A DNA stretch of 64,000 nucleotides from Shigella phage CT01. Every line of letters begins with the position of its first letter. The stretch's first letter is position 1. Both the position numbers and the translations under genes were made by a program. The DNA is taken from sequence record OK018184; one strand, written 5' to 3'. Below the pieces are notes generated by a model. That model searched no databases, had not been told where the DNA came from, and saw only the letters and a program-made list of their open reading frames with translations. Shown here piece after piece: positions 23,466 through 62,197 of this stretch.

Positions 23466-23525
23466 TTTGTGTTCCTCATGTTATGTCAGTAAAATTATTA
23501 TAACACAACACGAGGGACTTGTAAA

Positions 23526-25583
23526 CTACATTTTGAACTTTTTAGACATTTCGTTGATGTTAACCAAAGAAGCCAAGATTTGAGAAACTTCGTTTTCCTC
23601 TTCTTTTGATTCTTCTACAAGGAATTGATTAAATCCAGCCATTGGACGAACTTCACCAGTTTCCATCAGGTGGTCGCCATCATATACCGATTCTTCTAAT
23701 TGTTCAGAAGGAGGAACGATTGTGCCTTCGATTAGATACTTGTTATAAGCAGTTTCTTTCATCATGTACGTACTCACTTTATTAATCTTCAGTAAAATTC
23801 CACGTGGTAAAATAACTTCAGCTTCTGATGGAAATCCTGATAAATGACCCGGAACGATAACTTTGATTCGCTCAGCTCCTTTAATTACCATACCCACGCT
23901 AGTTTCAGCATCTTCATTCGCATAAGCAGAGTGACTGCCCATATGCATTAAATCTTCAGCATCAACTGAACCTTCTCCTTCACCAGAAAATACTGCACCA
24001 GAATCATCTAGAGCCATATAGTTTTTACCATACTCACCGAAGATATTTGGTTTAAGCGATGTGGATACGAAGTTCTTGAAATAGAACATTTTATTTTCAA
24101 TATTATGACGTAAAGTTTTAAAGGTAACTTCTTGTCCACGGTAAAGTGTAGTTCCTGGAGGAAGAACTGATCCTTTGGCAAAGGCAGAATCCATTGTCTC
24201 GATGTGTTTAATAGCTCGTTCCATGTATTCTTCACGTGTAGAATCTGGTTTACCTAAAAGGAACGAGTTCATTTCAACATATGAATCTGCACAATAATCT
24301 TCAATTACATCAGACTCAGCCTGAGTTAATCCTTTTGGAGTTACTTCAGTACTTGCATATTCATACGCTTGAGAAGCAGACTCATTAATCAATTTATAAA
24401 TGCCATTCATGACAAATTGAATAATAGCTACCTTTTCATCTGGCGTGGCTTTAGAACCTTTAACTAAATCATTGACAATTTTCTTAATAACATCAAAACT
24501 ATTAGAAATATTAATGTCAGCAAGATCGCTTAAAATTTTATCGGTTTTATAATCAAAAAATTCTTTATTCTTTAAATATTCTTGAGAACCTTGATATGTT
24601 ATATCGCTCTGTAACTTGATAGATGGATCACGTAAACGTGCATGAGCCAATGCAATATGATTTCGGAAGCTTTCTAGTTCATAATCACTAGATTTAAAAC
24701 GAGAAGCACTTCTCATACCACCGATAGCTCCTTTGCTGAAGTTTGAACCAACCTGAATAACGCCGGAGTTCATTGGTCCTTCTGCTTTATATACCGGAAC
24801 TTTAGATTCAAACTCTTGATATTTCTTAGCAGCGAAGCTATCACCCTGAAGTGAAGCATCGACAGTAGAGTATTGAGCTTGTGCTGCTAATCGACGACTA
24901 ATTTTAGTTTTCTGAATAACAGCTTGATCCGTGCGCTTATCATTTTCTAAAGCAATAGAAGCAGCAACAGCAACAGCTTTAGGAACAGCATTGCCTGTTT
25001 TAACATCTACATAAACATCACCAACCTTTGATTCAACTTTTGTGAATAACTCAGTTGAAATAGGAGGTACACCTGGAATGTCTTCTAAATTGGCATTTTT
25101 ACGGTAAACCATAATATATGCATATTTCTTATCATAGTCCCAGATTTCTTTTAAAAGAACATATCGACCTGCTCCTTTAGTACGTACTAAACGGTCGGCA
25201 ATAACCTGCATTTGACGAGCTGCGCCATTTGTTTTACTTTTTAGTACGCGGAATAAGCATGCGTCAATTTTATACTGTTTCATTGTTTGAAGAGCAGTAT
25301 CAAAAACGGCATTAATGACACCAATTGGATTTCCACCCAAGTTTTTAAGTTTAACTAATGATAGTTTCTCATTAACACCTATCATTACGATATGCATCAT
25401 TTTATCGCCTGGCTTAACATTTTTATTTGTATCACCACCAGAGGTGTATGTACAAAATCTAAATCCAGGAAGCACACTTTCTTCGCCTGCTTGAATAGCA
25501 AAAATTTGAGGTATTTTATGCTTCGGATTTAAGTTAACAACCGGCGCTTCGGCGCCGTCAAATAATTCTGTAATAAGTTCCAT
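23526..25583 (-). CDS. Alt-like ADP-ribosyltransferase paralogue (second copy)
   Basis: 685 aa; N-terminus MELITELFD shared with adjacent alt; ART motifs R (TLYRGQ), STS (VSTSL), E-x-E (SEAEV) intact. Confidence 0.8.
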   Translation of the reverse strand: MELITELFDGAEAPVVNLNPKHKIPQIFAIQAGEESVLPGFRFCTYTSGGDTNKNVKPGDKMMHIVMIGVNEKLSLVKLKNLGGNPIGVINAVFDTALQTMKQYKIDACLFRVLKSKTNGAARQMQVIADRLVRTKGAGRYVLLKEIWDYDKKYAYIMVYRKNANLEDIPGVPPISTELFTKVESKVGDVYVDVKTGNAVPKAVAVAASIALENDKRTDQAVIQKTKISRRLAAQAQYSTVDASLQGDSFAAKKYQEFESKVPVYKAEGPMNSGVIQVGSNFSKGAIGGMRSASRFKSSDYELESFRNHIALAHARLRDPSIKLQSDITYQGSQEYLKNKEFFDYKTDKILSDLADINISNSFDVIKKIVNDLVKGSKATPDEKVAIIQFVMNGIYKLINESASQAYEYASTEVTPKGLTQAESDVIEDYCADSYVEMNSFLLGKPDSTREEYMERAIKHIETMDSAFAKGSVLPPGTTLYRGQEVTFKTLRHNIENKMFYFKNFVSTSLKPNIFGEYGKNYMALDDSGAVFSGEGEGSVDAEDLMHMGSHSAYANEDAETSVGMVIKGAERIKVIVPGHLSGFPSEAEVILPRGILLKINKVSTYMMKETAYNKYLIEGTIVPPSEQLEESVYDGDHLMETGEVRPMAGFNQFLVEESKEEENEVSQILASLVNINEMSKKFKM

Positions 25584-25586
25584 GAT

Positions 25587-27683
25587 TTATCCTTGAACGA
25601 ACTTGTAAGGCATGTTTGTAATATCTATGCAAGACGCAATAATTCCAAGAGATGATTCTACTTTCTGTTTAACGTTTGATGAAACAAATGATGCAAAGTC
25701 AACTCTGTCTTCTACTTCAATATCACCTGTCATTGCAACTACTTCGCCGGTTTCCATTAGACGGTCACCGTCATAAATGACTGATTCGGTGAGTTCTTCC
25801 GTAGTCATAACTTCAGCTTGAATGAGTTTTGTATTATTAGATGTTGTTCCGTCATTATTAGAAGCATCAGTTATTTTATTAACTTTGACCATCAATCCGC
25901 GCGGTAGAATAACTTCAGCTTCAGTTGCTATTCCGAGACTTCCTGGATATACAACATTAACTTTATGAGCTCCATCAATTGCCCATCCTATTTGAACTTT
26001 AACGTATTCAGGATTTTCTTTATACGCTCTTATTTCGTTTGGATTAATAGTTATTCCTTCTTCATTTTTATCAACTGTTAATTCATTACGAGCTTCTGGT
26101 TCTAAAAGACCGATACCAGCATGTGTAATTCCAAAACGTCCAAAAATGATAGGAGTTAAAGAAGTAGATACAAAATTTCTGAAATAGAACACTTTATTTT
26201 TAACTAGCGCTTCGTATATAGGAGCAGTCATACTTTGAGCACGATAAACTGTAATGCCTTCTGGTATACGGTCACCATTTTCAAAAGCTGAATCTAAATT
26301 ATTTATCGCAGATTCAATTTCTTTTTCACTCATTACATCATATCGTTCTGGATTGTAGCGGCCTAAAAGAAGATTATTGATGTCAGTATATCCTGATCCA
26401 CAATACTCTCTAATGCCGCGCTTTTGCGATGGAGTATATTTAGAACCATCACGTGCAATGGTAATATCAATCATTGGACCTGCACCAATTCCAGAAAAAC
26501 TATAAATCATTCGTTTGAGGAATTTAGTTTTTGCTGCGTTCCAGGAATTTTTAGTTATTTCTTCCCAGACTTCATCTGGCTGCCCTTTACGAGTTTTATT
26601 ATGTTTATCAAGCCAATTATCTTTATATTCTTCAAAGAATTGATTAACAGCTGCTGCGTATTTCTCTAAACATTTTATTGAAGTAGTTGGTTCATTTTTA
26701 ATCGCATTAAGAATTACATCTTTAATTTTTTCAGAAACTTCATTAACCTCACTTTTTGAAAAGAATTTATAGTCATAGTGAAGTTCATCTGCGGTTCCTT
26801 CGGCAATAATTTTTGCTGCCTTAGTTTTAGAAGCTAATGAATTAATTCCAAGCTTCATTTCTTCTGCTTCTGGAATTAAAGGAGCAGTAGCAGGTTTATT
26901 AAAATTAGCTGCGGTAGATTCATACTTCTGAAATAATTCACTTTCAAATCTAGAAGATTCTAATGATTGACTTTGTGCAATTGCTCTACGGGAAATTTTA
27001 ACTTTAACTATTACAGCTTGGTCAGAACGTTTATCATTTTCTTGCGCAATAGATGCTGCAATTGCTTCATTTTTAGTTACTTGAGCTCCAGTATCTTTAT
27101 TGATATAAACATCGCCGACCTTCGATTCAACTTTAGTAAAGAGCTCGGTACTAATTTCCGGAACTCCTGGAATGTCTTCTAGTGATACATTTTTGCGATG
27201 TATAAGAATATATGCATACTTTTTATCATAATCCCAGAGTTCCTTAAGAAGGACGTATCTGCCACCTGAACGACTACGGATAAGTCTATCAGCAATAAGT
27301 TGAATTTGTCGAGCTTGACCAGCAGTTTTAGACTTAAGAATACGAAGCATGCAGGCATCAATTTTATACTGACGCATCGTCTGCATTGCAACAGTAAAAA
27401 CTGAATTGATATAATTAATTGGGCTTGGACCGAGACCTTTCAATTTAGCAATTGAACCTTTAGCAGTTAATGTAAAAGGAACAATGTGCATCATTTTATC
27501 GCCCATCTTTAGATCACGGTTAGTATCACCTCCAGATGTATAGGTACATAAACGAAAGCCTGGTTGTTCAATTGCGTCATCAACATGAACTGAAAAAATT
27601 TGCGGTATTTTCTTCTTTGGATTTAAGTTTGTAATCGGAAGAGTAGTATCTTCGTCAAATAATTCTGTAATGAGTTCCATCAT
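25587..27683 (-). CDS. alt: Alt ADP-ribosyltransferase (packaged head protein that modifies host RNA polymerase)
   Basis: 698 aa; ART motifs R (TVYRAQ), STS (VSTSL), E-x-E (TEAEV); adjacent to gene 30 as in T4. Confidence 0.85.
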   Translation of the reverse strand: MMELITELFDEDTTLPITNLNPKKKIPQIFSVHVDDAIEQPGFRLCTYTSGGDTNRDLKMGDKMMHIVPFTLTAKGSIAKLKGLGPSPINYINSVFTVAMQTMRQYKIDACMLRILKSKTAGQARQIQLIADRLIRSRSGGRYVLLKELWDYDKKYAYILIHRKNVSLEDIPGVPEISTELFTKVESKVGDVYINKDTGAQVTKNEAIAASIAQENDKRSDQAVIVKVKISRRAIAQSQSLESSRFESELFQKYESTAANFNKPATAPLIPEAEEMKLGINSLASKTKAAKIIAEGTADELHYDYKFFSKSEVNEVSEKIKDVILNAIKNEPTTSIKCLEKYAAAVNQFFEEYKDNWLDKHNKTRKGQPDEVWEEITKNSWNAAKTKFLKRMIYSFSGIGAGPMIDITIARDGSKYTPSQKRGIREYCGSGYTDINNLLLGRYNPERYDVMSEKEIESAINNLDSAFENGDRIPEGITVYRAQSMTAPIYEALVKNKVFYFRNFVSTSLTPIIFGRFGITHAGIGLLEPEARNELTVDKNEEGITINPNEIRAYKENPEYVKVQIGWAIDGAHKVNVVYPGSLGIATEAEVILPRGLMVKVNKITDASNNDGTTSNNTKLIQAEVMTTEELTESVIYDGDRLMETGEVVAMTGDIEVEDRVDFASFVSSNVKQKVESSLGIIASCIDITNMPYKFVQG

Positions 27684-29644: not shown

Positions 29645-30576
29645 TAGAATGCTCCTTGAAAAATATTATCACCACTAGTAGGTCTATTATACAAATACTC
29701 TATGCCACCAGGTTTAATATAGTTCCATGTCTGAAACGGATGTGTCTGATATGGATGATATAGATGATTATTAGGTCTATTATACAAATACTCTATGCCA
29801 CCAGGTTTAATATAGTTCCATGTCTGAAACGGATGTGTCTGATATGGATGATATAGATGATTATAAGGATTTAATCCAGGCGTTCTCCAGGTAGTGTTCC
29901 AAGGAAAAGAATCGTTTTTAACCATCTTCTCAATTAAATCTTTTATAGCTTTTTCACTATCAAAACTTTCTTTATTTTCCTTCGGCGAAAAAAGCTTATT
30001 TTCTACATCATTCCATGTATAAACTCGCTGCGCAGTTTTTGGAATATTGTCACGCTCTCCTCGAGCCATCCAATAAACAGGAACATTTAATATTTCACTC
30101 GCATGATCGCAGTGATGAGCGAGATCGTCAATATAACAAATTACGTTATATTTCTCTTTTGCCTTTTTGAACAGCTCTTCTTTTGAAGAATCATGACCAC
30201 ACATCATTACTTCCGAGAAAGCACCAGGAAAAAGAGCATTCAAATTAAATTGACGATTCAACAGAGCGTCAATAGAATCACCCAATGCTGTAACAGCTAC
30301 AAAATTATAATCTTCTTTTAATTTGTTAATTACACACAGGGCATCTTTATACGGAGACAAGTAACGAATAAAATCTGAACGATTGTATTTTTCAATTAAC
30401 TTGACGCCAAGTTCTTCGTCACAATTAAAGAGTTTACCCGGAGAAATAAATTTCTCATCTTGGATCATTTTTAAAATATGTTCTAATGGAAGATTATATT
30501 TCTGAGCAAAATAAGGAAGGCCTGATTGCCAGCTTAAACATACTCCATCAATATCAGTTAAAATAGTTGGCTTCAT
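29644..30576 (-). CDS. HAD-superfamily hydrolase-like protein (T4 30.2 position) with internal 31-aa tandem duplication
   Basis: 310 aa; N-terminal ILTDIDGV resembles HAD motif I; 93-bp perfect tandem repeat near C-terminus. Confidence 0.65.
   Translation of the reverse strand: MKPTILTDIDGVCLSWQSGLPYFAQKYNLPLEHILKMIQDEKFISPGKLFNCDEELGVKLIEKYNRSDFIRYLSPYKDALCVINKLKEDYNFVAVTALGDSIDALLNRQFNLNALFPGAFSEVMMCGHDSSKEELFKKAKEKYNVICYIDDLAHHCDHASEILNVPVYWMARGERDNIPKTAQRVYTWNDVENKLFSPKENKESFDSEKAIKDLIEKMVKNDSFPWNTTWRTPGLNPYNHLYHPYQTHPFQTWNYIKPGGIEYLYNRPNNHLYHPYQTHPFQTWNYIKPGGIEYLYNRPTSGDNIFQGAF
29679..29864. repeat. 93-bp perfect tandem duplication (2 copies) inside 30.2 ORF
   Basis: 29679-29771 is identical to 29772-29864; in frame, duplicates 31 codons. 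Confidence 0.9.
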
Positions 30577-32805: not shown

Positions 32806-33022
32806 TATAAATTCTCTTTTAAATGAAAATGCAGGACTTATTGGCATTGCCTGCGCAAGCCCTCAAGGGGAACATAGGTTTTTGAATATTTAACGACCAG
32901 GATAACCATAAACCCGTCATCATACCTTATAGCTCTTATCTGTTGTACACCGTTAGCTTAAAGGTTCCGGGTTCGATTTCTCGAGGATAAGATATATACT
33001 AAGGCAGTGAATCTCCAATAAA

Positions 33023-34937: not shown

Positions 34938-35272
34938 TTCATAATCACCAGATAAGCAGATTTAGCAGTTTCAACACGATAAATTTCGTGACGAAGTTTA
35001 GTTATACTTTTAATAACAGAACTAATTATATTCTGCCCATCTTTAAAGCGGTTTTTCTTATCAATAAAAATTGCGCCAACCATCTTTTTGTGAAGCTCAA
35101 CTGGATACTTCGTCACAATAATAGCATCATACACAGAAGGATGAATACTATTCACTAGAGTGTCATTCATTAAAGTTATTCTAATGAACTGTGCTGTTTC
35201 AGAATCAAGCGCTCTATGATCGCCAGTATCATTTTCAAGACAATTATCAATTATATCAGTTAAATTCATCAT
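34934..35272 (-). CDS. Hypothetical protein (cd.x region)
   Basis: 112 aa ORF. Confidence 0.55.
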   Translation of the reverse strand: MMNLTDIIDNCLENDTGDHRALDSETAQFIRITLMNDTLVNSIHPSVYDAIIVTKYPVELHKKMVGAIFIDKKNRFKDGQNIISSVIKSITKLRHEIYRVETAKSAYLVIMK

Positions 35273-35505
35273 AGTACGCCATACACCCTTTGTGCTTCAA
35301 CTAATCCATCAAAATCCAGTTTAAGATGTGTTATTTGGTCACCATCACCTGGATTCACAATTACTAATACTGAACGAGGAGTTTCGGTAATAACACGAAC
35401 CGACGTTTCAGGAAATCGTTCAGAAACCTTATTTACCAATTCTTGAGCAAATAGTTTAACTTTTTCTTGGAATTCTTTAACAGTAATTGGTTTTTCGCTT
35501 AGCAT
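35269..35505 (-). CDS. Hypothetical protein (cd.x region)
   Basis: 78 aa ORF. Confidence 0.55.
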   Translation of the reverse strand: MLSEKPITVKEFQEKVKLFAQELVNKVSERFPETSVRVITETPRSVLVIVNPGDGDQITHLKLDFDGLVEAQRVYGVL

Positions 35506-39349: not shown

Positions 39350-39412
39350 CATAAAGCCCTCATGTTATGTCAGTAAGTCTACTATAACACAACACGAGGG
39401 ACTTGTAAACAG

Positions 39413-41000
<1,588 letters not shown>

Positions 41001-41027: not shown

Positions 41028-42179
41028 TTAAAAGTATTTTTTAAAACTCATCATAACTTTATCATCAACATCATTATCAATCTGTGCAACAAGGTAAGAT
41101 GACAGTTCTACTTCTTGTGGCGCGGATTGAACATTATCAGAATTAAGGTATTCACGAATCCAAGGATATGGATGTTTAACCGGAGCATCGGTAATTGGGC
41201 ATGGAAGACCGCACTGTTTCATACGAGATACAGTTAAGTAATCAATAAAGCTCCACATGCTATTTGTATTTAATCCAGGAACATCGCCATCTTTAAATAA
41301 ATGAACTGCCCAATCTTTTTCTTGGCGGTTAACTTCCATGAAAATATTAACTGCTTCTTGTTCACACTCTTGAGCAATTTTAACCCATTCGCCGCCATCA
41401 GTACCGGATTGAAGTTGACGAATAATATATTGGGTGCCTTTAAGGTGAAGCTGCTCATCACGTGCAATGAACTTCATAATCTTGGCATTACCTTCCATGA
41501 TTTCCATGTTCTTATGGAAGTTAAAGGTACATGCAAAAGATACATAAAAACGAATAGCTTCTAAGGCATTAATAACGTGCAAACAGAGGTAAAGAGATTT
41601 CATTAGTGCTCGTTTAGCTTCGGCTTCTTGTTTAATAGCTCGATTTAAACGAAAAACAGCATCAGGAGATTCTTTAGCTAGTTCTGTAAATTCTTTAGCA
41701 TTTTCCCATTCACGGGTTTTAGTCAGAACATCATCATAATAGCGACCGATAGATTCAGCACGTTTCATGATAGCTTCATCTAGTACAATCTCATCAAATA
41801 CCTTCGATGGATCAGTATAAAGATTTCGCATGATATGGGTATATGAACGGCTATGAATAGTTTCACTAAAAGTCCATGTAGCAACCCATGTATCAAGACT
41901 TGGGTCTGAAATTAATGACATAAGTACTGCAGACGGTGCACGACCCTGAATGCTATCTAGAAGTGATTGATACTTCAGGTTGTTAGTAAAAATATCTTGC
42001 TGATACTGAGGAAGCTTGTTAAATTGTGCAGCATCCATCATTAAGTTTACTTCTTCAGGACGCCAGAAAAATGACAACTGCTTTTCGGTTAAATCTTCAA
42101 AAACTTTATGACGTTGAATATCATAACGCGCAATACCAAGACCTGAACCGAAGAACATAGGTTCTTTTAAAACATTCAA
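41028..42179 (-). CDS. nrdB: Ribonucleotide reductase small subunit NrdB (no intron; start codon uncertain)
   Basis: 383 aa ORF continuous with class Ia R2 sequence; track start is a TTG preceded by an in-frame stop; first ATG is at MFFGSG. Confidence 0.85.
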   Translation of the reverse strand: MNVLKEPMFFGSGLGIARYDIQRHKVFEDLTEKQLSFFWRPEEVNLMMDAAQFNKLPQYQQDIFTNNLKYQSLLDSIQGRAPSAVLMSLISDPSLDTWVATWTFSETIHSRSYTHIMRNLYTDPSKVFDEIVLDEAIMKRAESIGRYYDDVLTKTREWENAKEFTELAKESPDAVFRLNRAIKQEAEAKRALMKSLYLCLHVINALEAIRFYVSFACTFNFHKNMEIMEGNAKIMKFIARDEQLHLKGTQYIIRQLQSGTDGGEWVKIAQECEQEAVNIFMEVNRQEKDWAVHLFKDGDVPGLNTNSMWSFIDYLTVSRMKQCGLPCPITDAPVKHPYPWIREYLNSDNVQSAPQEVELSSYLVAQIDNDVDDKVMMSFKKYF

Positions 42180-42309
42180 CTAAATTTTCCTTATCATCAG
42201 AACCTCCCATACATCTAGGGATTATATGATGTGTCTCTTTATATTCTGATAAAGATTCCCGAGCCTGAGCTCGGGAAATTAGGTCATTATAGATTTTTTG
42301 ATAATTCAT
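42121..42309 (-). pseudogene. Truncated HNH homing-endonuclease remnant (mobE-like position between nrdA and nrdB)
   Basis: 62 aa ORF starting 7 nt after nrdA stop; contains HNH-like HHIIPRCMGGSDDKENLV, then runs out of frame into nrdB. Confidence 0.55.
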
Positions 42310-43091
42310 TACAATTTACACGCTGCGCAATCATCGGCTTTTGGAGTTTCTATTTCGTAATCATCAGTACCGGAACCATCACGAGTATTATGATAATAGA
42401 AGTTTTTAATGCCATAATACCATCCGTATAGCATGTCATCAATCATTACAGACATTGGAACCTTTCCTTTTGGAAAAATCTGCGGGTCATAATATGTATT
42501 CGCTGAAGCTGATTGACATACCCATTTCAGCATAATAGCTACCTGCGTAAGATAAGGTTTATTGCCTTTCTTAGCTAATTTCCACGTATAATCATAGAGG
42601 TCTATGTTATGCTCAATATTGGGCACGACTTGATTAAAGGAACCCTCTTTTGATTCTTTAACAGAGACTGGTCCACGTGGAGGCTCGATACCGTTTGTAC
42701 TGTTAGAAACTTGGGAAGATGACTCACATGGCATAAGTGCTGATAATGTGCTATTACGGATGCCAAAGAGCTTAAGGTCTTCCCGCAGCGACGACCAGTC
42801 ACAAACGTATTTTGGAGCTGCGATTTGGTCAATCTTTTTATTGTACCAGTCGATAGGTAATTCGCCTCGAGACCAACGAGTGTCTGAATAATATTCGCAA
42901 GGTCCTTTTTCTTTGGCGAGCTTAATGGATGCTTTAATGAGCCCATACTGTAATCTCTCAAATAGTTCATGTGTTAAATCGTTAGCATCTTCATAAGAAG
43001 CAAAGTTACTTGCCAGCCAAGCTGCATAGTTCGTAACACCAACACCGAGATTACGACGCTTTTTAGCTTTTAAAGCTTCTGGAACCGGATA

Positions 43092-43239
43092 ATCTTGATA
43101 GTCTAACAGGTTATCAAGTGCACGTACTTGAACTTCTGCTAATTCATTAATTTTATCTTGGTCTTGCCAATCGAAGTTATCCAACACAAATGCAGATAAC
43201 GTGCACAATCCAATTTCAGCATCAGGACTATTCACATCA
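43092..43239. repeat. 148-bp direct repeat, left copy (nrdA codons for DVNSPDAEIG...LLDYQD)
   Basis: Identical to 44099-44246. Confidence 0.9.
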
Positions 43240-44098
43240 GTTCGACGCGTTGTTCTTGAAGACGGATCACATACTTGGACTGCTAAACAAGATTTTAATG
43301 GCGCAGTTAACTTTAACTCTACTGTTAACCTTAATAACACTACCACATTTAAAACAGAAGTTAAATTCCGCTCGTTGAATGCATTCCGTATGTATGGCGG
43401 AAAATTTGGTACATTTTTACGTAATGATGGAGAGAGTCTTTATATTCTTTCCACCGACGAAGATGATCAAGATGGAAACTTTAATACAAATAGACCTTTC
43501 CGTTATGAATTAAGAACTGGTGATGTTACTTTGGGTGGTGTTAGTGGTGCTAACGTTTTAAAATTAAAACGTGATTCTCTCACCGCATTTTTTGGCGGTG
43601 ATATTAACATGAAAGGCACGATGACTTTTGACGCCGGACGTTTAGGGTCACGAGATTATTTTAAATTTAACCATTGGGGTGATAGCAATAACGCTCGTGA
43701 TAACATCATCCAGTTAGAAGATAGTCAAGGCGCTCATTTTTCCACTGAACGTACTTTAGCGACTGGTGCAATTAAAACTCGTTTCTTTGGCGAAACATTC
43801 ACTGATGGTACATTATACCTAAATCAGATGAATAATAGCTCTGAACGATTCCATATCAATAATTGGGGAAATTCAGAAGTTGGTCGCGCGGCAGTGATGG
43901 AAGTCGGTGATTCCAAAGGTTATCACTTCTATACGGAACGCAGGACAGATAACAGTTTGACATTTGATGTTGCTGGCACTTTTACCGTGCATGGACCTAC
44001 CGGGATCACTATCAAAAACTCTGTTGGTGCTCGCCACATCTGGTTTAAAGATGATAGCGATGCAGAAAAGGCTGACAGTTTAATTACCTTCCGCAGTG
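43240..44098 (+). other. Insertion within nrdA: 835-bp fragment of tail fibre gene 37 (sense on + strand) plus 24-bp filler of unknown origin
   Basis: 43240-44074 matches gene 37 at 60946-61436 except that it also contains the 344 bp absent there; 44075-44098 matches neither locus. Confidence 0.85.
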
Positions 44099-44246
44099 AT
44101 CTTGATAGTCTAACAGGTTATCAAGTGCACGTACTTGAACTTCTGCTAATTCATTAATTTTATCTTGGTCTTGCCAATCGAAGTTATCCAACACAAATGC
44201 AGATAACGTGCACAATCCAATTTCAGCATCAGGACTATTCACATCA
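44099..44246. repeat. 148-bp direct repeat, right copy
   Basis: Identical to 43092-43239. Confidence 0.9.
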
Positions 44247-45570
44247 TTTGTTGGAATAGCAATTTCACAACACAAGTTACTCTGGCGAATAGGCGCCTTT
44301 TCACGAATAAACGGAGTATAGTTATTCGTATTATCAATGAACTGCACATAAATCCTTGCTGTTCCTGATCGTTCAGTCATGAGTAATTCAAATAGTTCAC
44401 GGGCTTTAATACGCTTTTTGCGAATATTAGGGTCTTTTTCTGCTGCTTCGTATAATTCGCAGAAACGGTCTTGGTCTTTAAAATAAGAATAATAAAGCTC
44501 ACCACCCATTTCATGCGGACTGAACAAAGTAATGTAATCGTTCTTTCCAAAACGTTCCATCATCAAATCATTCAACTGGACGCCATAATCCATATGACGG
44601 ATACGGTTTTCTTCTACACCTTTGTTATTTTTCAAAACGAGAAGATTTTCAACTTCCAAATGCCAAATAGGATAATAAGCAGTAGCAGCGCCGCCACGAA
44701 TTCCGCCCTGTGAACATGATTTAACAGCAGTCTGAAAATGTTTCCAAAAAGGAATAACACCAGTATGGCGTACTTCACCTGTGCCAATCTTAGAACCTTC
44801 GGCACGAATCATACCAACGTTAATACCGATTCCAGCTCGTTTTGAAATATACTCAACAATTGAAGCAGAAGCCTTATTGATAGACTTCAGCGAATCGCCT
44901 GCCTCAATAACAACGCATGAACTAAATTGCCGAGTCGGAGTACGACATCCAGCCATAATAGGAGTAGGCAGTGAAATCTGTCGAGTAGATACTGCTTCAT
45001 AAAAACGAATAACATGTTTTAATCTATCAACAGGTTCATCTTGATGTAATGCCATTCCAATAGTCATAAATGCAAACTGAGGAGTTTCATAAATTTGACC
45101 AGTGGTTTTATCTTTAACGAGATATTTTTCTTTTAATTGCATCGCCCCGGAATAAGTAAATTCCATATCCCGCTCATGCTTAATTTTTGATTCTAAAAAT
45201 GTAATTTCTTCTGCTGAATATTTTGACAACAATTCAGGGTCGTATTTACCTTCATTTACACAGTAAGAAATATGGTCAATAAATGAACGTGGTTCATATT
45301 GCCCGTAAACATGCTTACGAAGAGCAAACATTAAACACCGTGCAGCTACGTATTGATAATCAGGCTCTTCAACTGAAATAGAATTCGCAGCAGCCTTAAT
45401 TACAATGGTTTGAATGTCATCAGTGGTCATTCCATCACGGAGATATGATTTAATATTTTCATATAATTCATAAGGATCTACAGATGTTCCTTCAGCTGCC
45501 CAAGATAAAACTTTAATAATTTTTTGCGGGTCAAAGCTTTGAGAAACACCACTACTTTTGATAACATTAA

Positions 45571-45897
45571 TTAATTGCATAAGTCCTCAACTTGAAAATC
45601 GTCTTTAAACAATCGGTTAACTATATGAGCTATTATATCACCATGACACGGCTTTGGTTTACATGTGCATCCTAGCCTCATTCCACGTAAAGGCTCTAAA
45701 TGTGCTTTAGTTATTTCTCCGGATTTAATTCGACGTATAAAATCTTTTTTGAATAATTCAATGGCAGCCTCCCGGCTGCCAGCATCTTTACCGACGTAAT
45801 TTCCCCAAAATGTACCACGGTGAATATTAACATCAAAGTCGGATTTATATTTATTCACTACTTGGCATAGACGGCCCGCGCGGTGATAATTTGTCAT
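45571..45897 (-). CDS. Hypothetical protein upstream of nrdA
   Basis: 108 aa ORF; [11 protein letters not shown] cysteine motif. Confidence 0.55.
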
Positions 45898-47411: not shown

Positions 47412-48238
<827 letters not shown>

Positions 48239-48246
48239 ATTATCTC

Positions 48247-48582
48247 CTAATATAAAGGATCGGGAACATATCCACTAGCTTTAATCATTTTGATTAATGT
48301 TAACATTCCTTTATTAACTGCTCGTGAGATTTCATCAAAAACTTCATCACTAAAAAGTTCTAACACGCCCTTCTGAACTTTTAATTTACACCCAATAATT
48401 TCGTCATCGCCTATAGTAAATTCGTTTCCGCCAATTCCACCGAAAAACTTAATTGCACCAGTCAACTGTCTTCCACGAGAATATGGGTCGTGTGATAAAG
48501 TAATATGAGTCACCCCAGGTACAGTTTTAAATTGACAGCGGATGTTTACTTGGGCAATTCCAGTTACGTGAATGTCAGACAT
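48247..48582 (-). CDS. Hypothetical protein (frd.x region)
   Basis: 111 aa ORF. Confidence 0.55.
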   Translation of the reverse strand: MSDIHVTGIAQVNIRCQFKTVPGVTHITLSHDPYSRGRQLTGAIKFFGGIGGNEFTIGDDEIIGCKLKVQKGVLELFSDEVFDEISRAVNKGMLTLIKMIKASGYVPDPLY

Positions 48583-48606
48583 AATATTTTCCTCAAACAG
48601 ACTTTT

Positions 48607-49029
48607 TCACAATTTTCCAATCAGCTTTAAACTGTTCAACGTCAGAATGATAAATCCAGAATCCTGCGCTTTCTCCATCCTCATAAAGAGGGCATCCATC
48701 GCATTCATCTTCCCATCCCATATCACGTAAAAGATGTTCGGCTTTTTCAACGAGATCAGAATCTTTACCGATGATATTAAAATACCATTTACCTCTAACT
48801 TCTGAATCTTTTCTTTAGTAGCCTTTTCCATACTTCTGAACTTAACCAATAGAGGATAGGTATCGACACCCATAACTAAACTGGTTACAAGACTGTGTTC
48901 ACCCACAAGCCATAACGAATACGTTTGAATATCGAGTCCGTAATTTCTGTCTTTATGGACCCGTACACCCATCACTTCAAATTTCTCACTAGCTTTTTCT
49001 ACCGCATCCAGGAAATCATCTTTAGTCAT
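48607..49029 (-). CDS. Hypothetical protein (frd.x region); may be two shorter ORFs
   Basis: ORF track 154 aa; likelier start at internal ATG (MTKDDF...); C-terminal half has odd composition. Confidence 0.4.
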   Translation of the reverse strand: MTKDDFLDAVEKASEKFEVMGVRVHKDRNYGLDIQTYSLWLVGEHSLVTSLVMGVDTYPLLVKFRSMEKATKEKIQKLEVNGILISSVKILISLKKPNIFYVIWDGKMNAMDALFMRMEKAQDSGFIILTLNSLKLIGKL

Positions 49030-49030
49030 A

Positions 49031-49432
49031 TTAGGCCTTAAAAGTTTTTCGCAAAAGTTCAATGATTTCATCTACATTGTTTTCGTCTACAATGCAGTGA
49101 ATTTTTGTTACGCCAGAAATCTTGTCTTCGACTTCATCTTCTTCAGAAGTCGGTTCTTTATACTCGCGGAAACAATAAAACTCTTCTTCACTAAGTTCAA
49201 AATAATCATCACCTATGCCATCATTATAATAGATTTCGCCATTAGCACAAATGATTTCGGTTACATAATCAAAGCCATCTAAACTTGATATTGATTTAAC
49301 TTCAAACCAACCGCCATTTTCTTGAATGATGCTGACCATATTAGCATTTGATGAACTAATATCAATGAAAGATTTAATACGGTGTGGATTTAACTCATAT
49401 TTTTTGCCGATTTCCATTTTGATTTTCCTCAT
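49031..49432 (-). CDS. Hypothetical protein
   Basis: 133 aa ORF. Confidence 0.55.
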   Translation of the reverse strand: MRKIKMEIGKKYELNPHRIKSFIDISSSNANMVSIIQENGGWFEVKSISSLDGFDYVTEIICANGEIYYNDGIGDDYFELSEEEFYCFREYKEPTSEEDEVEDKISGVTKIHCIVDENNVDEIIELLRKTFKA

Positions 49433-49834: not shown

Positions 49835-50743
49835 TTAAAGGTCATTCAAAAGGTCATCCAGATCCGTGTCATCAGCACTAGATGAACTGCCAGAGCTTGA
49901 GCTCATAAAATCATCTTCAGTTTTTGTTTTGAAGTCATCAACATTGAATGCATCCAAATCATCAGCAACTTTATCAGCTTTCTTAGCGGCAGTTGCTGCG
50001 GCACCGCCCATAGCAGCAGTTCCCATAACTTGACTGAACTTAGTGCTCAGTTCTTCAAACGATTTGAATTTATCTTTAGAAGTCATTTCAGAAAGGTCAA
50101 CCATTTGTTCGAACAGTTCTTTCTGGAAAGATTCATCATCAATGTTTGGAATCGCAGATTGATTCAGGAATTTAGATTCATCGTAGTTACTAAAACCAGA
50201 AACTTGTTTAACTTTCAGTACAAAGTTAGCACCTTCCCACGGACAAGTTACATCAACCGGAGTTTCACCCATTTCAACATCAACTGCAATCATTGCATTG
50301 ATTTTATCCCAGATTTTCTTACCAAAACGGTATTTAAATACTTTACCTTCATTTTCTGGAGCAGCTGGGTCTTTTACTACAAGAATGTTAGCCCAGTAAG
50401 AAGTTTTACGTTTAACAAGACCGTACTCTTTATTGTCAGTGTTATACAAATCATTTTTACTGATGTACTGACATACTGGACAAGAATCGTAATCACCGTG
50501 GGTAGATGAACAGTTTTCAATATACCATTTACCATTTTTCTTGAAACCGTGATTTACAAGAATTGCGAATGGTGCTTGTTCATCATTTTTAGACGGAAGA
50601 AAACGAATTACTGCTTGACCGTTACCCGCATTATCGAGTTTCAGTTTCCACTCGCCTTTATCTTCAGAAGAAAAACTACCTTTATTTCCAGCCAGTTTAG
50701 CCATTTGTGCAGCGAGTTCAGCAGTAGATTTACGTTTAAACAT
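49835..50743 (-). CDS. 32: Single-stranded DNA-binding protein gp32
   Basis: 302 aa; matches recalled T4 gp32 ([17 protein letters not shown]..., C-terminal acidic serine-rich tail). Confidence 0.95.
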
Positions 50744-50990
50744 TTTTATTTCCTTTTTAATTTAATTAACAGTTGGTGCTATGACGATGTATGACCTCAT
50801 AGCTGGTCAGTGAGATAATTATAATCTATTTATAATAAGCAATTAATACTTACAAGATTTCACAGTTTCAATGAAAACACTTTTGGCTTTCTGTGAATCA
50901 ATATTTAAAATTTTTCTATAAGCCTTTAACTTTATAGAATAATTATTCCAGACTAAATTATCAGTCTGTTCATCATGTTTATCAATTATA
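50453..50990. repeat. 538-bp direct repeat, copy 1 (gene 32 first 97 codons + gene 32 leader + last 49 codons of gene 59)
   Basis: Identical to 51054-51591. Confidence 0.9.
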
Positions 50991-51344
50991 ATTCGAACTG
51001 ATCTGTGTTTGTGCATTTGGGCATATGTTTGCGCGCGTAAAGCAGGCTGGTCGATTTTTACTGATGTACTGACATACTGGACAAGAATCGTAATCACCGT
51101 GGGTAGATGAACAGTTTTCAATATACCATTTACCATTTTTCTTGAAACCGTGATTTACAAGAATTGCGAATGGTGCTTGTTCATCATTTTTAGACGGAAG
51201 AAAACGAATTACTGCTTGACCGTTACCCGCATTATCGAGTTTCAGTTTCCACTCGCCTTTATCTTCAGAAGAAAAACTACCTTTATTTCCAGCCAGTTTA
51301 GCCATTTGTGCAGCGAGTTCAGCAGTAGATTTACGTTTAAACAT
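50982..51344 (-). pseudogene. Truncated duplicate of gene 32 5' end (97 gp32 codons fused to 23 junction codons)
   Basis: 120 aa ORF identical to gp32 through ...VCQYISKN, then diverges in the 63-bp filler; carries a second copy of the gene 32 leader. Confidence 0.75.
50991..51053. other. 63-bp junction filler of unknown origin between the two repeat copies
   Basis: Does not match flanking phage sequence; higher GC than its surroundings. Confidence 0.7.
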
Positions 51345-51591
51345 TTTTATTTCCTTTTTAATTTAATTAACAGTTGGTGCTATGACGATGTATGACCTCA
51401 TAGCTGGTCAGTGAGATAATTATAATCTATTTATAATAAGCAATTAATACTTACAAGATTTCACAGTTTCAATGAAAACACTTTTGGCTTTCTGTGAATC
51501 AATATTTAAAATTTTTCTATAAGCCTTTAACTTTATAGAATAATTATTCCAGACTAAATTATCAGTCTGTTCATCATGTTTATCAATTATA
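51054..51591. repeat. 538-bp direct repeat, copy 2
   Basis: Identical to 50453-50990. Confidence 0.9.
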
Positions 51592-58765: not shown

Positions 58766-59458
58766 ATGGCTGATTTAAAAGTAGGTTCAACTGTGGGTGG
58801 ATCTGTCATTTGGCATCAAGGAAATTTTCCATTGAATTCAGCCGGTGACGATGTACTCTACAAATCATTTAAAATATATTCAGAATATAATAAACCGCAG
58901 GCAGCTGATAACGATTTCGTTTCTAAAGCTAATGGTGGTACTTACACCGGTCCAATTACTATTAATTACGGGGTAAATAGTTATCTTCAATTAAGTAATA
59001 ATGAAACCCCTATCCGAATTCGTTCTGGTGGCGGCACCGGTAATACTCTTGTAATTGGTGGATCTTCTGGTGGTATTAGTTTTAGACCTGCAGGTAGTGA
59101 AATCACTACTGGACAAATTAGTTTTAGACCTGCAGGTAGTGAAATCACTACTGGACAAATTACTATTACGCCAGAAGGTTTGACAACATTCACCAAAGCT
59201 GTAAAGGCTCCATCTGTAACTGTTACATCTACTCCTTCCGCAGCATCAGATGCTACTCGTAAAGATTATGTTGATGGAGCAATAAATACTGTTACAGCAA
59301 ATGCAAACTCTAGAGTGTTACGATCTGGTGACACCATGACAGGAAATTTAACTGCGCCAAACCTTTTTTCACAGAATCCTGCATCTCAACCTTCACACGT
59401 TCCACGATTTGACCAAATCGTAATTAAGGATTCTGTTCAAGATTTCGGCTATTATTAA
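58766..59458 (+). CDS. 36: Long tail fibre proximal-distal connector gp36 (with 14-aa tandem duplication)
   Basis: 230 aa; T4 gp36 is 221 aa; contains a perfect 42-bp tandem repeat. Confidence 0.88.
59076..59159. repeat. 42-bp perfect tandem duplication (2 copies) inside gene 36
   Basis: 59076-59117 is identical to 59118-59159; in frame ([14 protein letters not shown] x2). Confidence 0.9.
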
Positions 59459-59466
59459 GAGGACTT

Positions 59467-62197
59467 ATGGCTACTTTAAAACAAATACAATTTAAAAGAA
59501 GCAAAACCGCAGGTCAACTTCCTGCTGCTTCAGTATTAGCCGAAGGTGAATTGGCTATTAATTTAAAAGATAAAACAATTTTCACAAAAGATGACTCAGG
59601 CAATGTTATAGAATTAGGTTTAAAATATGGAGGAACAATTGATGGTTCTTTAACTGTTAATGGAAATATAATTGGAAATTTAACAGGTAACGCTGCAACT
59701 GCAACGAAATTAAAAACAGCACGAAAAATTAATGGTATATCCTTTGATGGGTCAAAAGATATCACGCTAACTCCATCCGACATAAATGTCAATAGCACAA
59801 CGTTTATAAAAAATAACGGCGAATTACCTGTTGATGCTAATTTAGATACGTATGGGCCTGTTGAAGAATATCTTGGAGTTTGGTCGAAAGCAACTTCAAC
59901 CAACGCTCAACCAGCAAATAAATTTCCAGAAAACAATGCTGTAGGTGTGCTAGAAGTATTTGTGGCCGGTCAATTTGCTGGTACTCAGAGATATACAACT
60001 AGATACGGAAATGTTTATATTCGTTCCTTGACTGCTACATGGAACGGAGTAAATGGTCCGTGGAGTGTGTGGCGAAATATTCAATCCGGTACTCGTTCAC
60101 TGTCAACAACAATTGATCTTAATGATCTAGGAGGTGCTGAACATCTTGGTTTGTGGCGAAATAGTTCAAATTCCATTGCTACCTTTGACAGAAATTTCCC
60201 AGAAGAGGGGTCGTCAGCTCAAGGTCTTTTGGAAGTATATGAAGGTGGAAACTATTCTCGTACACAAAGATATACAACCAGATTTGGTGTTGTTTATACT
60301 CGCTGTCTTACTGCTGCGTGGGATGCTTCTGCGCCTAAATGGGGACCGTGGCAACAAGTCGGTAATGTCACACCGGCGACTTTCTATGACGGAAACCTGA
60401 ATGATTTTAAAACTCCTGGGTTATATAATATTTTAGGCACTGATGCCGTTATTAATTGTCCTACAGGCGAAGGTTTACCAGCCGTTATTGTTGGTTTGCT
60501 GGAAGTTAAACAGCGTGCTTCTGGCGGTGCTATTTTCCAAAAATTTACTACTGCCGGAACAGGTGCAACTACCCGCGATCGTATTTTTGAGCGCGCATAT
60601 ACCGGCGGTGTGTGGGGTGAATGGAACGAAGTATACACATCTTATTCTCTACCAATTACTTTGGGTATGGGCGGTATTAAATCTAACTTAGCAGAGTTAG
60701 ACTGGCAAGCATTTGATTTTGTTCCTGGTAGTATGTTTAGCGTTCCTTTGAACAAAATAAAGAACATGCCAGCTAATATGGATTGGGGTACGATTGACGG
60801 AAACTTAATTATGTTTTCTGTTGGTCCTAGCGAGCACACCAGCACAGGACGTACTGTTCAGGTTTGGCGTGGAACTGTATCCCAGACAAACTATCGTTAT
60901 TTTGTCGTTCGTGTATTCGGTAATCCAGGGAGTAGAACATGTACAGTTCGACGCGTTGTTCTTGAAGACGGATCACATACTTGGACTGCTAAACAAGATT
61001 TTAATGGCGCAGTTAACTTTAACTCTACTGTTAACCTTAATAACACTACCACATTTAAAACAGAAGTTAAATTCCGCTCGTTGAATGCAAGGCGCTCATT
61101 TTTCCACTGAACGTACTTTAGCGACTGGTGCAATTAAAACTCGTTTCTTTGGCGAAACATTCACTGATGGTACATTATACCTAAATCAGATGAATAATAG
61201 CTCTGAACGATTCCATATCAATAATTGGGGAAATTCAGAAGTTGGTCGCGCGGCAGTGATGGAAGTCGGTGATTCCAAAGGTTATCACTTCTATACGGAA
61301 CGCAGGACAGATAACAGTTTGACATTTGATGTTGCTGGCACTTTTACCGTGCATGGACCTACCGGGATCACTATCAAAAACTCTGTTGGTGCTCGCCACA
61401 TCTGGTTTAAAGATGATAGCGATGCAGAAAAGGCTGTTATCTGGGCTACAGATGAGGGTATTTTACATATTCGCAATAATCATGAGGGTTCATTTAGTCA
61501 TCACTTCCAGGGTGCAATGATTAAACTGGAAGGGCGTGTTCCTTATGGTGCAGCAAAAGGGCTTATTCGAGGCGAGATAGACGGTGGTGCATATGTTGCA
61601 TGGAGAGACCGCCCTGCTGGTTTGTTGGTTGACTGCCAGAAAAGTATTGACAGTGCTCATGCTGTTTGGAAAGCGGTTGATTGGGGGCGTCAATATATCG
61701 CTGCTATGGACGTTCATTGTCCGGGTGATGGTAATAATACTGCGGCAGCGGTTCTTCATGTTCAGGCTGCTGATTATCAATTCCATGCAAGCGGAGAATT
61801 TCATGCCACTGGTAACGGGAACTTTAACGATGTGTATATTCGTTCCGATGGTCGTCTGAAAATTAATGTTGAAGATTATACAGGAAATGCGTTAAGTTTG
61901 ATCGGCAAACTGAAAGTGAAAACTTACGATAAAGTTAAATCTCTTAAAGACCGTGAAATTATCGGTCACGAGATCGGCATTATCGCACAGGATTTACAAG
62001 AAATATTACCGGAAGCTGTAAAATCTTCAAAGGTTGGCAATCTTGATAATCCAGACGATGTTCTGACAATTTCTAACTCTGCTGTGAATGCTCTTTTAAT
62101 TAAGGCTATTCAGGAAATGAGTAAAGAAATTAAAGAATTGAAAACTCCTTTCTTTACTAAAATTGCTCGCAAAATTAGTAAATATTTTAAATTCTAA
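59467..62197 (+). pseudogene. 37: Long tail fibre distal subunit gp37, frameshifted by a 344-bp internal deletion
   Basis: Split into ORFs 59467-61110 and 61085-62197; the missing 344 bp (junction at 61089/61090) is present in the copy inside nrdA; C-terminus has a chaperone-like domain. Confidence 0.85.

Follow-up and report, generated by a model that had tools for sequence, protein, structure and literature searches.

A gene 37 fragment embedded in nrdA of the Shigella phage CT01 sequence spans a deletion in the resident tail-fibre gene

The gene 37 fragment in nrdA

In the sequence of Shigella phage CT01, nrdA is interrupted by an 835-bp perfect copy of gene 37 sequence, located at 43240-44074 and followed directly by a short filler. 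The resulting 859-bp insert is flanked on both sides by a perfect 148-bp direct duplication of nrdA. Coordinates refer to the window, the whole 64-kb stretch of DNA that was analysed, and the features of the locus are the following.

42309..43346, minus strand: nrdA 3' part, an ORF with its start inside the insert; Pfam Ribonuc_red_lgC positions 222-523
43092..43239, minus strand: nrdA direct repeat copy 1, 148 bp, codons ~445-494, the last nrdA sequence before the fragment
43201..44157, plus strand: 318-aa ORF in the gene 37 frame, antisense to nrdA, with a Pfam Gp34_trimer-like match
43240..43383, plus strand: left homology arm of the ectopic fragment, 144 bp (146 bp with CA), 100% identical to 60946-61089
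43384..43727, plus strand: 344 bp unique to the ectopic copy, gp37 residues ~542-655, absent from the resident gene 37
43728..44074, plus strand: right homology arm of the ectopic fragment, 347 bp (349 bp with CA), 100% identical to 61090-61436
44075..44098, no strand: filler ACAGTTTAATTACCTTCCGCAGTG, 24 nt
44084..45580, minus strand: nrdA 5' part, a 498-aa ORF entering the filler; Pfam ATP-cone, Ribonuc_red_lgN and Ribonuc_red_lgC positions 1-268
44099..44246, minus strand: nrdA direct repeat copy 2, 148 bp, identical to 43092-43239

Self-BLAST and a repeat search agree on two exact self-matches of the window, one pairing 43238-43383 with 60944-61089 (146 bp, 100%) and the other 43726-44074 with 61088-61436 (349 bp, 100%), the offsets of which differ by 344 bp. 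Exact repeats of 146 and 349 bp do not arise by chance. Two nucleotides, CA, are ambiguous both at the nrdA/gene 37 junction and at the deletion junction of gene 37, and once they are removed the two matches become the arms of 144 and 347 bp, which together with the 344 bp between them make up the 835-bp fragment. The ectopic piece is identical to gene 37 of Shigella phage SF2-1 at 837 of 837 positions, and this identity extends without exception through the 344 bp at 43384..43727.

SF2-1 (PQ571308.1) is the closest public relative of the window, which belongs to a T4-type (Tequatrovirus) genome, extends from the genes for tail sheath and tail tube as far as the holin gene and has a GC content of 36%. 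The plus strand of the window corresponds to the minus strand of the SF2-1 record in collinear blocks of 98-100% identity. In comparison with SF2-1, 84 other large ORFs are intact, the exceptions being nrdA, mobE and two small ORFs fused near 48811; base-level accuracy is therefore good, and a raw long-read assembly riddled with frameshifts is ruled out. The domain Ribonuc_red_lgC of the gene that hosts the insert is divided between 44084-45580 and 42309-43346, both on the minus strand, and copy 1 of the nrdA repeat maps to 112240-112387 of the SF2-1 record. When 43240-44246 is removed in silico, the two halves join into a 754-aa NrdA that is identical to its SF2-1 counterpart at all 754 residues.

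The insert itself encodes a segment of the gp37 shaft only, and the Pfam matches in its ORF are confined to tail-fibre-type domains. No dedicated late promoter lies near it, the nearest plus-strand TATAAATA being at 39949, 3.3 kb upstream; sigma-70-like sites occur at no higher rate than shuffled sequence gives, and neither expression nor targeting signals were found for the fragment. Rfam detects no structured RNA in the insert or in a 181-bp segment that is missing at 33000, and in the window as a whole neither an intron nor any other RNA family. Insertion of a homing-endonuclease gene or intron is ruled out by the exclusively tail-fibre-type domains and the empty Rfam search. A transposon or IS element is likewise ruled out by the lack of inverted repeats (minimum length 40), by the restriction of the insert to the gp37 shaft and by the 148-bp length of the duplication.

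An nrdA gene divided into two ORFs by an insert has a precedent in Aeromonas phage Aeh1, where, in the account given by PMC2988022 (Friedrich et al. 2007), the insertion is that of mobE. The likeness does not extend to the nature of the insert, which in Aeh1 is a homing endonuclease gene and here an antisense fragment of gene 37. The halves of the Aeh1 gene are expressed and reassemble, whereas those of the present gene overlap by a 49-codon duplication, the 3' half is without its native start, and the start of nrdB is lost as well.

The deletion in the resident gene 37

The resident copy of gene 37 is interrupted at a deletion junction, 61089/61090, where 344 bp are missing, and is represented by two ORFs.

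59467..61110, plus strand: resident gene 37, 5' part, 547 aa, with a stop 21 nt past the junction
61085..62197, plus strand: resident gene 37, 3' part, a 370-aa ORF with the Peptidase_S74 chaperone domain (Pfam)

Since 344 is not a multiple of 3, the gene is frameshifted. T4-type phages cannot do without the distal long tail fibre, and a frameshift in its gene is lethal. The genotype as written would thus not be plaque-forming. Moreover, convertants with a functional gene 37 would be expected to outgrow the defective parent, so that the written genotype could hardly exist as a stable plaque-forming population. No extended repeat is found at the ends of the missing segment, their similarity stopping at the 2-nt CA, and a repeat-mediated deletion of this part of gene 37 is ruled out.

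When 60944-61436 is swapped in silico for 43238-44074, a 3075-nt ORF of 1024 aa is obtained, and the patched gp37 is identical to that of SF2-1 at 1021 of 1024 residues. The sequence-only reading had described the fragment as an exact patch template for the lesion in gene 37, and this description holds: the fragment spans both boundaries of the deletion and carries perfect arms on either side, so it is indeed no cut-and-paste of the deleted piece. Equally sound is the proposal that a double crossover or gene conversion from the nrdA copy would restore an intact gp37. Both arms exceed in length the homology patches of <50 bp that T4-type recombination needs according to Singer et al. 1982, cited in PMC2839356. 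If the deletion and the ectopic copy had arisen independently, the probability of a 344-bp deletion falling wholly inside the 835-bp copy would be ~0.003 per 168-kb genome.

A twin structure at genes 32 and 59

About 7 kb from the nrdA insert lies a second structure of the same design, in which a perfect duplication is again combined with a filler.

50453..51591, no strand: twin duplication-plus-filler; 50453-50990 is identical to 51054-51591, a perfect direct repeat of 538 bp

The duplication takes in the gene 59 end together with the beginning of gene 32; both products (gp59 and gp32) remain intact despite it, and the region becomes collinear with SF2-1 once the 538-bp overlap is merged. In relatives, a segG-like homing endonuclease gene occupies exactly the interval between genes 32 and 59. 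Between the two copies of the duplication lies a 63-nt filler (50991-51053, 49% GC), which is a garbled copy of E. coli/Shigella mdtD, ~80% identical to it and with an exact core of 26 nt. Among 185,579 species-representative genomes, a 24-nt stretch of this core occurs only in E. coli-type sequences, while a 40-mer around the core occurs in 0 of the 185,579. Beyond the core, alignment of the flanks to the syntenic part of mdtD requires mismatches and three single-base gaps; for the left flank, p is ~0.013 against shuffles. Single-base gaps inside a coding region point to a low-quality or error-ridden copy of host DNA, not to an orthologue.

Both fillers sit where a left-hand segment has its right end, a place where junk tails build up, and neither is templated from the window or from the native flanks. 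They were compared with a set of adapter, primer and recombination-site sequences, and no significant match to these was found, a 10-mer of attB1 failing correction for multiple testing. The 24-nt filler has no match in the window, the native flanks, the tested adapters, E. coli genomes or phage records. The sequence-only reading had mentioned neither this filler nor the 148-bp duplication of nrdA nor the twin structure at genes 32 and 59.

A probable mis-tiled or chimeric contig

How could such an arrangement have come about? The geometry, the perfect identities, the in-silico restorations and the nature of the fillers are direct observations, and the pattern as described is genuine; most likely it is an assembly artefact, and otherwise a one-off repair accident. 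The leading reading, which we hold with even confidence, is that the 835-bp piece is the missing middle of gene 37, misplaced within a contig that was mis-tiled or is chimeric. We infer that the joins were made in assembly or finishing, or come from in-vitro chimeric molecules, and were not made in the phage. The caveat of the sequence-only reading, that population heterogeneity or construction on the one hand and biology on the other could not be told apart from the letters, was apt, and the evidence gathered here tilts to the side of heterogeneity or construction.

Under the misassembly reading the contig would consist of overlapping segments set end to end with their overlaps left unmerged. 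The first segment would stop in nrdA at 43239 and would be followed by a small segment made up of the gene 37 middle and a 24-nt junk tail (43240-44098). A third would restart 148 bp back in nrdA (44099) and end with the 63 nt of host-derived junk (to 51053); a fourth would restart 538 bp back (51054) and stop in gene 37 at 61089; and the last would resume 344 bp further along gene 37. Unmerged overlaps would then show up as perfect duplications. The small segment would belong between the last two, overlapping them by 144 and 347 bp, and its lack from gene 37 would produce the apparent 344-bp deletion. The real phage would have an intact nrdA, an intact gene 37 and a single-copy 32/59 region. 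Merging of the overlaps and re-placement of the segment do restore the wild-type order at all three loci.

Several observations argue for this reading. The deletion would be nested exactly in the ectopic copy because the fragment is the bridging piece, a coincidence at the level of ~0.003 if the events are taken as independent. That an essential gene should be broken while the rest of the genome is clean also favours an artefact. The garbled mdtD filler, with its core of E. coli-type only and its three gaps, has the look of the tail of a low-quality chimeric read. Direct repeats of 144, 148, 347 and 538 bp, all of them perfect, should be short-lived in a real lineage of so hyper-recombinogenic a phage, given that patches of <50 bp suffice for T4-type recombination. 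The arrangement resembles unmerged contig overlaps or a misplaced contig in draft phage genomes, which likewise show perfect duplications at the joins, junk at segment tails, and an apparent deletion matching whatever part of a displaced segment has no overlap, with merging leading back to the wild type. It differs from typical unmerged overlaps in that the lengths are irregular (144, 148, 347 and 538 bp) and do not correspond to one k-mer size, and from overlap artefacts of draft genomes in that two of the joins have 2-nt microhomology.

Other considerations speak against an artefact. The presence of CA at both focal junctions would amount to two coincidences under blind concatenation (~0.03-0.04). 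The structural-gene half of the window is spared, and random assembly breaks would not obviously do so. The model requires that the small segment was put into a gap other than its own, for which no particular software behaviour could be named. Base-level quality is otherwise high, and three further deletions, described below, look like genuine illegitimate recombination filtered by selection, so that the lineage may truly be rearrangement-prone.

As long as the reads have not been checked, the main value of these observations is cautionary: a phage with the genome written here would be unable to make long tail fibres. Given this fibre-less genotype and the two duplication-plus-junk joins, the gene 37, nrdA and 32/59 regions should not be relied on, and are unfit for host-range, annotation or evolutionary inference.

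Other deletions and the case for a possible real rearrangement

Relative to SF2-1 and all top-scoring phage records, the window has three unique deletions, of 181 bp at 33000, 629 bp at 42181 and 124 bp at 48811. All three hit dispensable DNA only, and each has exact microhomology of 2-3 nt. The second removes most of mobE together with the first 26 nt of nrdB and leaves the following remnants 1.06 kb from the nrdA insertion.

41028-42179, minus strand: nrdB (Pfam), start lost
42121-42309, minus strand: mobE remnant (HNH endonuclease), 62 aa (Pfam)

The deleted segments have 34-45% GC against 36% for the window, so that the deletions cannot be put down to a loss of coverage over AT-rich stretches. 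A 2-nt microhomology such as CA has a chance of ~0.16-0.19 per junction and is weak evidence at each one; jointly the two focal junctions reach ~0.03-0.04, and at least 2 nt of microhomology at all five junctions would be expected with a chance of ~2.5e-4. Across 1-33000, the half of the window with mostly structural genes, no large rearrangement relative to SF2-1 is seen.

These regularities are an argument for a rearrangement that took place in phage DNA, as a recent and non-adaptive event of microhomology-mediated template switching (FoSTeS/MMBIR) or of illegitimate one-sided T4 double-strand break (DSB) repair. A 3' end in nrdA, nascent or broken, would have jumped via the 2-nt microhomology to gene 37 of a sister genome and copied 835 nt; on exit it would have gained the 24-nt filler and re-entered nrdA 148 bp upstream, yielding the insertion together with its flanking duplication. 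In formal terms the result is that of a 1007-bp mini-circle integrating by a single crossover of the Campbell type. Linked to this event, the loss of 344 bp from gene 37 would have arisen as a side product, when the same break was sealed by microhomology or when pairing of the ectopic with the resident copy was processed aberrantly. What was sequenced would be a variant that is defective or hitch-hiking, and its patchability would be incidental.

Besides the microhomology at the five junctions, the distribution of the lesions is consistent with such an origin. With the exception of gene 37, they hit dispensable genes (nrdA, mobE and the nrdB start, the small ORFs near 48811) or leave genes intact, and the structural-gene half is free of them, a pattern expected of selection acting on real events. 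They also cluster by homing-endonuclease loci, namely the mobE remnant and the segG-like site at 32/59. SegG targets gene 32 and MobE nicks nrdB, and the free-standing endonucleases of T4 cut hundreds to thousands of bp away from their own genes, with co-conversion tracts of up to ~2 kb. The insert is templated from the phage's own genome, its 835 bp being identical to its own gene 37 allele. Illegitimate DSB repair with microhomology junctions and extensive resection is documented in T4 according to PMC2988022 (Parker et al. 1999).

The same account meets several difficulties. The frameshifted gene 37 could not be the majority genotype of a plaque-derived stock, in which convertants would be expected to take over. 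There is no worked-out mechanism that would tie the deletion to the copy, and as independent events the two remain at the ~0.003 level. Untemplated or garbled fillers, here of 24 and 63 nt, are unusual at phage and bacterial junctions, and the host copy resembles sequencing noise; the perfect direct repeats should quickly have recombined away, given the short homology on which T4-type recombination acts. In addition, the phage carried mobE itself, as the remnant attests, and should therefore have been immune to MobE cutting. The lethal lesion at consensus level, the garbled filler and the missing link between deletion and copy place template switching second, and we regard it as rather unlikely.

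Comparison with known cases gives a similarly mixed picture. Shared with FoSTeS/MMBIR and with T4 one-sided DSB repair are the insertion from a distant locus, the 2-3-nt junctions, the duplication on re-entry and the clustering at endonuclease loci. In the documented T4 cases, however, the donors are introns or endonuclease genes and the cut site is defined, whereas here no endonuclease target is known at codon 445 of nrdA or in gene 37. The present fillers, moreover, lack a template in nearby sequence, and the product has a lethal lesion. Campbell-type integration, as in T4 insertion/substitution systems, shares the target duplication, which is what a 1007-bp circle (148 nt of nrdA, 835 nt of gene 37 and 24 nt of filler) would leave behind. 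In T4 insertion/substitution integration and in the mini-circle shuffling of PeSL cassettes, flanking duplications resolve by recombination (PMC2839356). Unlike in Campbell-type and PeSL systems, a plasmid backbone or selectable marker is missing here and the source of a circle is not known; nor do the ends of the insert carry the early promoter plus stem-loop elements of PeSL cassettes.

Were the junctions real, nature would have supplied at this locus a clean case of complex templated insertion into a T4-type genome, together with a built-in substrate for measuring the ectopic gene conversion of an essential tail-fibre gene.

Occurrence elsewhere and the question of a stored donor

The fragment matches 214 phage records in 215 places and is ectopic in none of them; correspondingly, the arrangement of gene 37 within nrdA is absent from the phage records searched. 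The nrdA/gene 37 junction and the deletion junction of gene 37 have no match in IMG/VR or in JGI metagenomes, a discriminating 48-mer of the base genome has none in IMG/VR, and the truncated NrdA and gp37 have none on record as exact proteins. A literature search returned no relevant account of the nrdA/gene 37 arrangement or of tail-fibre donor cassettes in T4-like phages. The absence of the junctions and of the truncated proteins from all public collections searched favours an artefact.

It also bears on the suggestion of the sequence-only reading that the fragment might be a stored donor segment, and on the idea of an evolved silent cassette, in which a promoterless partial copy of gene 37 kept in nrdA would repair or vary the fibre gene by gene conversion. 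The fragment is indeed promoterless, its arms are long enough for T4-type recombination, and the one lethal lesion of the window is exactly the one for which a spare copy exists. A cassette of this kind would, however, be expected to supply variation, and the single copy differs at 0 positions from the resident arms and from gene 37 of SF2-1. None of the 214 matching phage records has it in the ectopic position, nor do IMG/VR and the JGI metagenomes contain the arrangement. The large ORFs of the window all match ordinary SF2-1 genes and none is annotated as a reverse transcriptase; an added recombinase, reverse transcriptase or targeting element is found nowhere among them. The expression locus is dead, not variable, and around the insert stand an unstable 148-bp duplication and junk filler, with a non-functional twin at 32/59. 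The suggestion was thus not borne out: a single identical copy, unique to this sequence and without expression or targeting signals, faces a dead recipient gene amid surroundings suggestive of a mis-join. We consider a stored donor very improbable.

The silent cassettes behind antigenic variation in Neisseria pilS/pilE, Borrelia vls and trypanosome VSG, as well as phage marker rescue, have in common with the present case a promoterless partial copy able to convert an expression locus. In contrast to pilS/pilE, vls and VSG, the cassette is here single, undiverged and unconserved, the expression locus is inactivated and dedicated machinery is lacking. Promoterless copy and flanking homology are therefore the features of silent cassettes that are present, while multiple diverged cassettes, conservation and a functional expression locus are not. 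A diversity-generating retroelement is ruled out by repeats that are 100% identical and by the fact that no large ORF is annotated as a reverse transcriptase. If a donor cassette were nevertheless the right reading, the least likely of all, it would represent a new phage route to safeguard or vary host-range genes. An arrangement both real and heritable would let a fibre-defective genome persist and regenerate its fibres, as a phage analogue of silent cassettes or of a marker rescue built into the genome, a prospect that we regard as very improbable.

A possible deliberate construct

A layout that matches a marker-rescue donor also brings to mind a deliberate or synthetic origin, whether as a gene 37 deletion mutant with a rescue fragment at nrdA, as a genome that was cloned in a surrogate host (e.g. 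yeast) and rearranged there with no selection on phage function, or as an in-silico edit. Dispensability makes nrdA a locus suited to insertions, and the arrangement occurs in none of the public collections searched; the gp34 of the window is likewise not on record. Several perfect duplications with fillers of ~42-49% GC in a genome of 36% GC would also be consistent with construction. The details of the joins nonetheless argue against it. No vector, marker, scar or recombination site is present, and no adapter or primer among those tested. Designed insertions do not look like a 148-bp target duplication with ragged fillers, and the junctions show microhomology instead of designed ends; the 63-nt filler is host-derived and garbled, not random. 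A knockout of gene 37 made by design would as a rule not take the form of a 344-bp frameshift whose junction shares 2 nt. We therefore hold a construct to be improbable, less so than a stored donor.

Two minor observations concern other structural proteins of the window. Matches to its gp35 come from two other phages, in both of which gene 37 is intact. The gp18/gp19 junction near 2245, considered as a further lesion, was dropped, this being the common endonuclease-free allele.

Mosaic structure of gene 37

Gene 37 (59467-62197) has a natural mosaic structure. The part upstream of about 60250 is almost the same as in L006, a relative's sequence from a Logan contig (SRR21919633), and differs from that of Shigella phage SF2-1 (PQ571308.1), the closest public relative; the part downstream of about 61485 matches SF2-1 exactly and differs from L006 by about 5%. 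The three sequences show no differences across 60514-61484, an interval that includes both gene 37 arms copied within nrdA, and the original and copied arms therefore cannot be distinguished by SNPs. In the neighbouring gene 36 we observe a tandem repeat (59064-59162) expanded in frame by 42 bp; gp36 has 230 aa in the window versus 216 aa in SF2-1, L006 and a further relative's sequence, L005.

Ribonucleotide reductase region

A 629-bp deletion with its junction at 42181/42182 has taken out the greater part of mobE, which encodes an HNH endonuclease, together with the first 26 nt of nrdB. In comparison with the top phage hits it is seen in the window alone, and leaves the following remnant:

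42121-42309, mobE remnant, retaining the start and the internal terminator hairpin (42277-42256)

With nrdB lacking its start and nrdA split, the aerobic ribonucleotide reductase as written appears to have both of its subunits disabled.

Duplication at genes 59 and 32

The end of gene 59 and the start of gene 32 are directly duplicated around a filler:

50453-51591, perfect direct duplication of 538 bp
50991-51053, 63-nt filler, E. coli/Shigella mdtD in garbled form, with an exact core of 26 nt

Both gp32 and gp59 are intact despite the duplication. At this same site L005 and L006 carry a 210-aa ORF between the two genes, which, judged from its position, is probably segG-like, with no Pfam hit on record.

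Small deletions and accessory segments

Two shorter deletions set the window apart from all top-scoring relatives. One, of 124 bp at 48802-48812, joins two small ORFs, located between frd and gene 32, into a single ORF (48607-49071); its junction shows an exact microhomology of 2 nt and an imperfect repeat matching at 8/10 positions. The other, at 32998-33001 between rIII and the next gene, has a 3-nt microhomology at its junction and removes a 181-bp segment (about 35108-35288 in the comparison sequence L002, 123107-123287 in SF2-1), which is unusually GC-rich (45% versus 36% for the genome) and has no match in Rfam. A 594-bp segment of the window with two small ORFs (47995-48588) is missing from SF2-1 and OR780565.1 and found in other T4-type phages, e.g. 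EPIMRB01; this is an accessory-gene polymorphism of the ordinary kind.

Other repeats and paralogues

An in-frame tandem duplication of 93 bp (29676-29861, copies 98-99% identical) appears to predate the perfect duplications of the window; the gene in which it lies diverges very strongly, in this part, from its SF2-1 homologue. A 53-nt intergenic element occurs twice, 15.9 kb apart (23474-23526 and 39358-39410, 92% identical), and may represent a PeSL-type (early-promoter/stem-loop) cassette, a type described in T4-type phages. Two adjacent Alt-like ADP-ribosyltransferase paralogues (23778-27638), sharing about 72-75% identity over stretches, are also paired in SF2-1.
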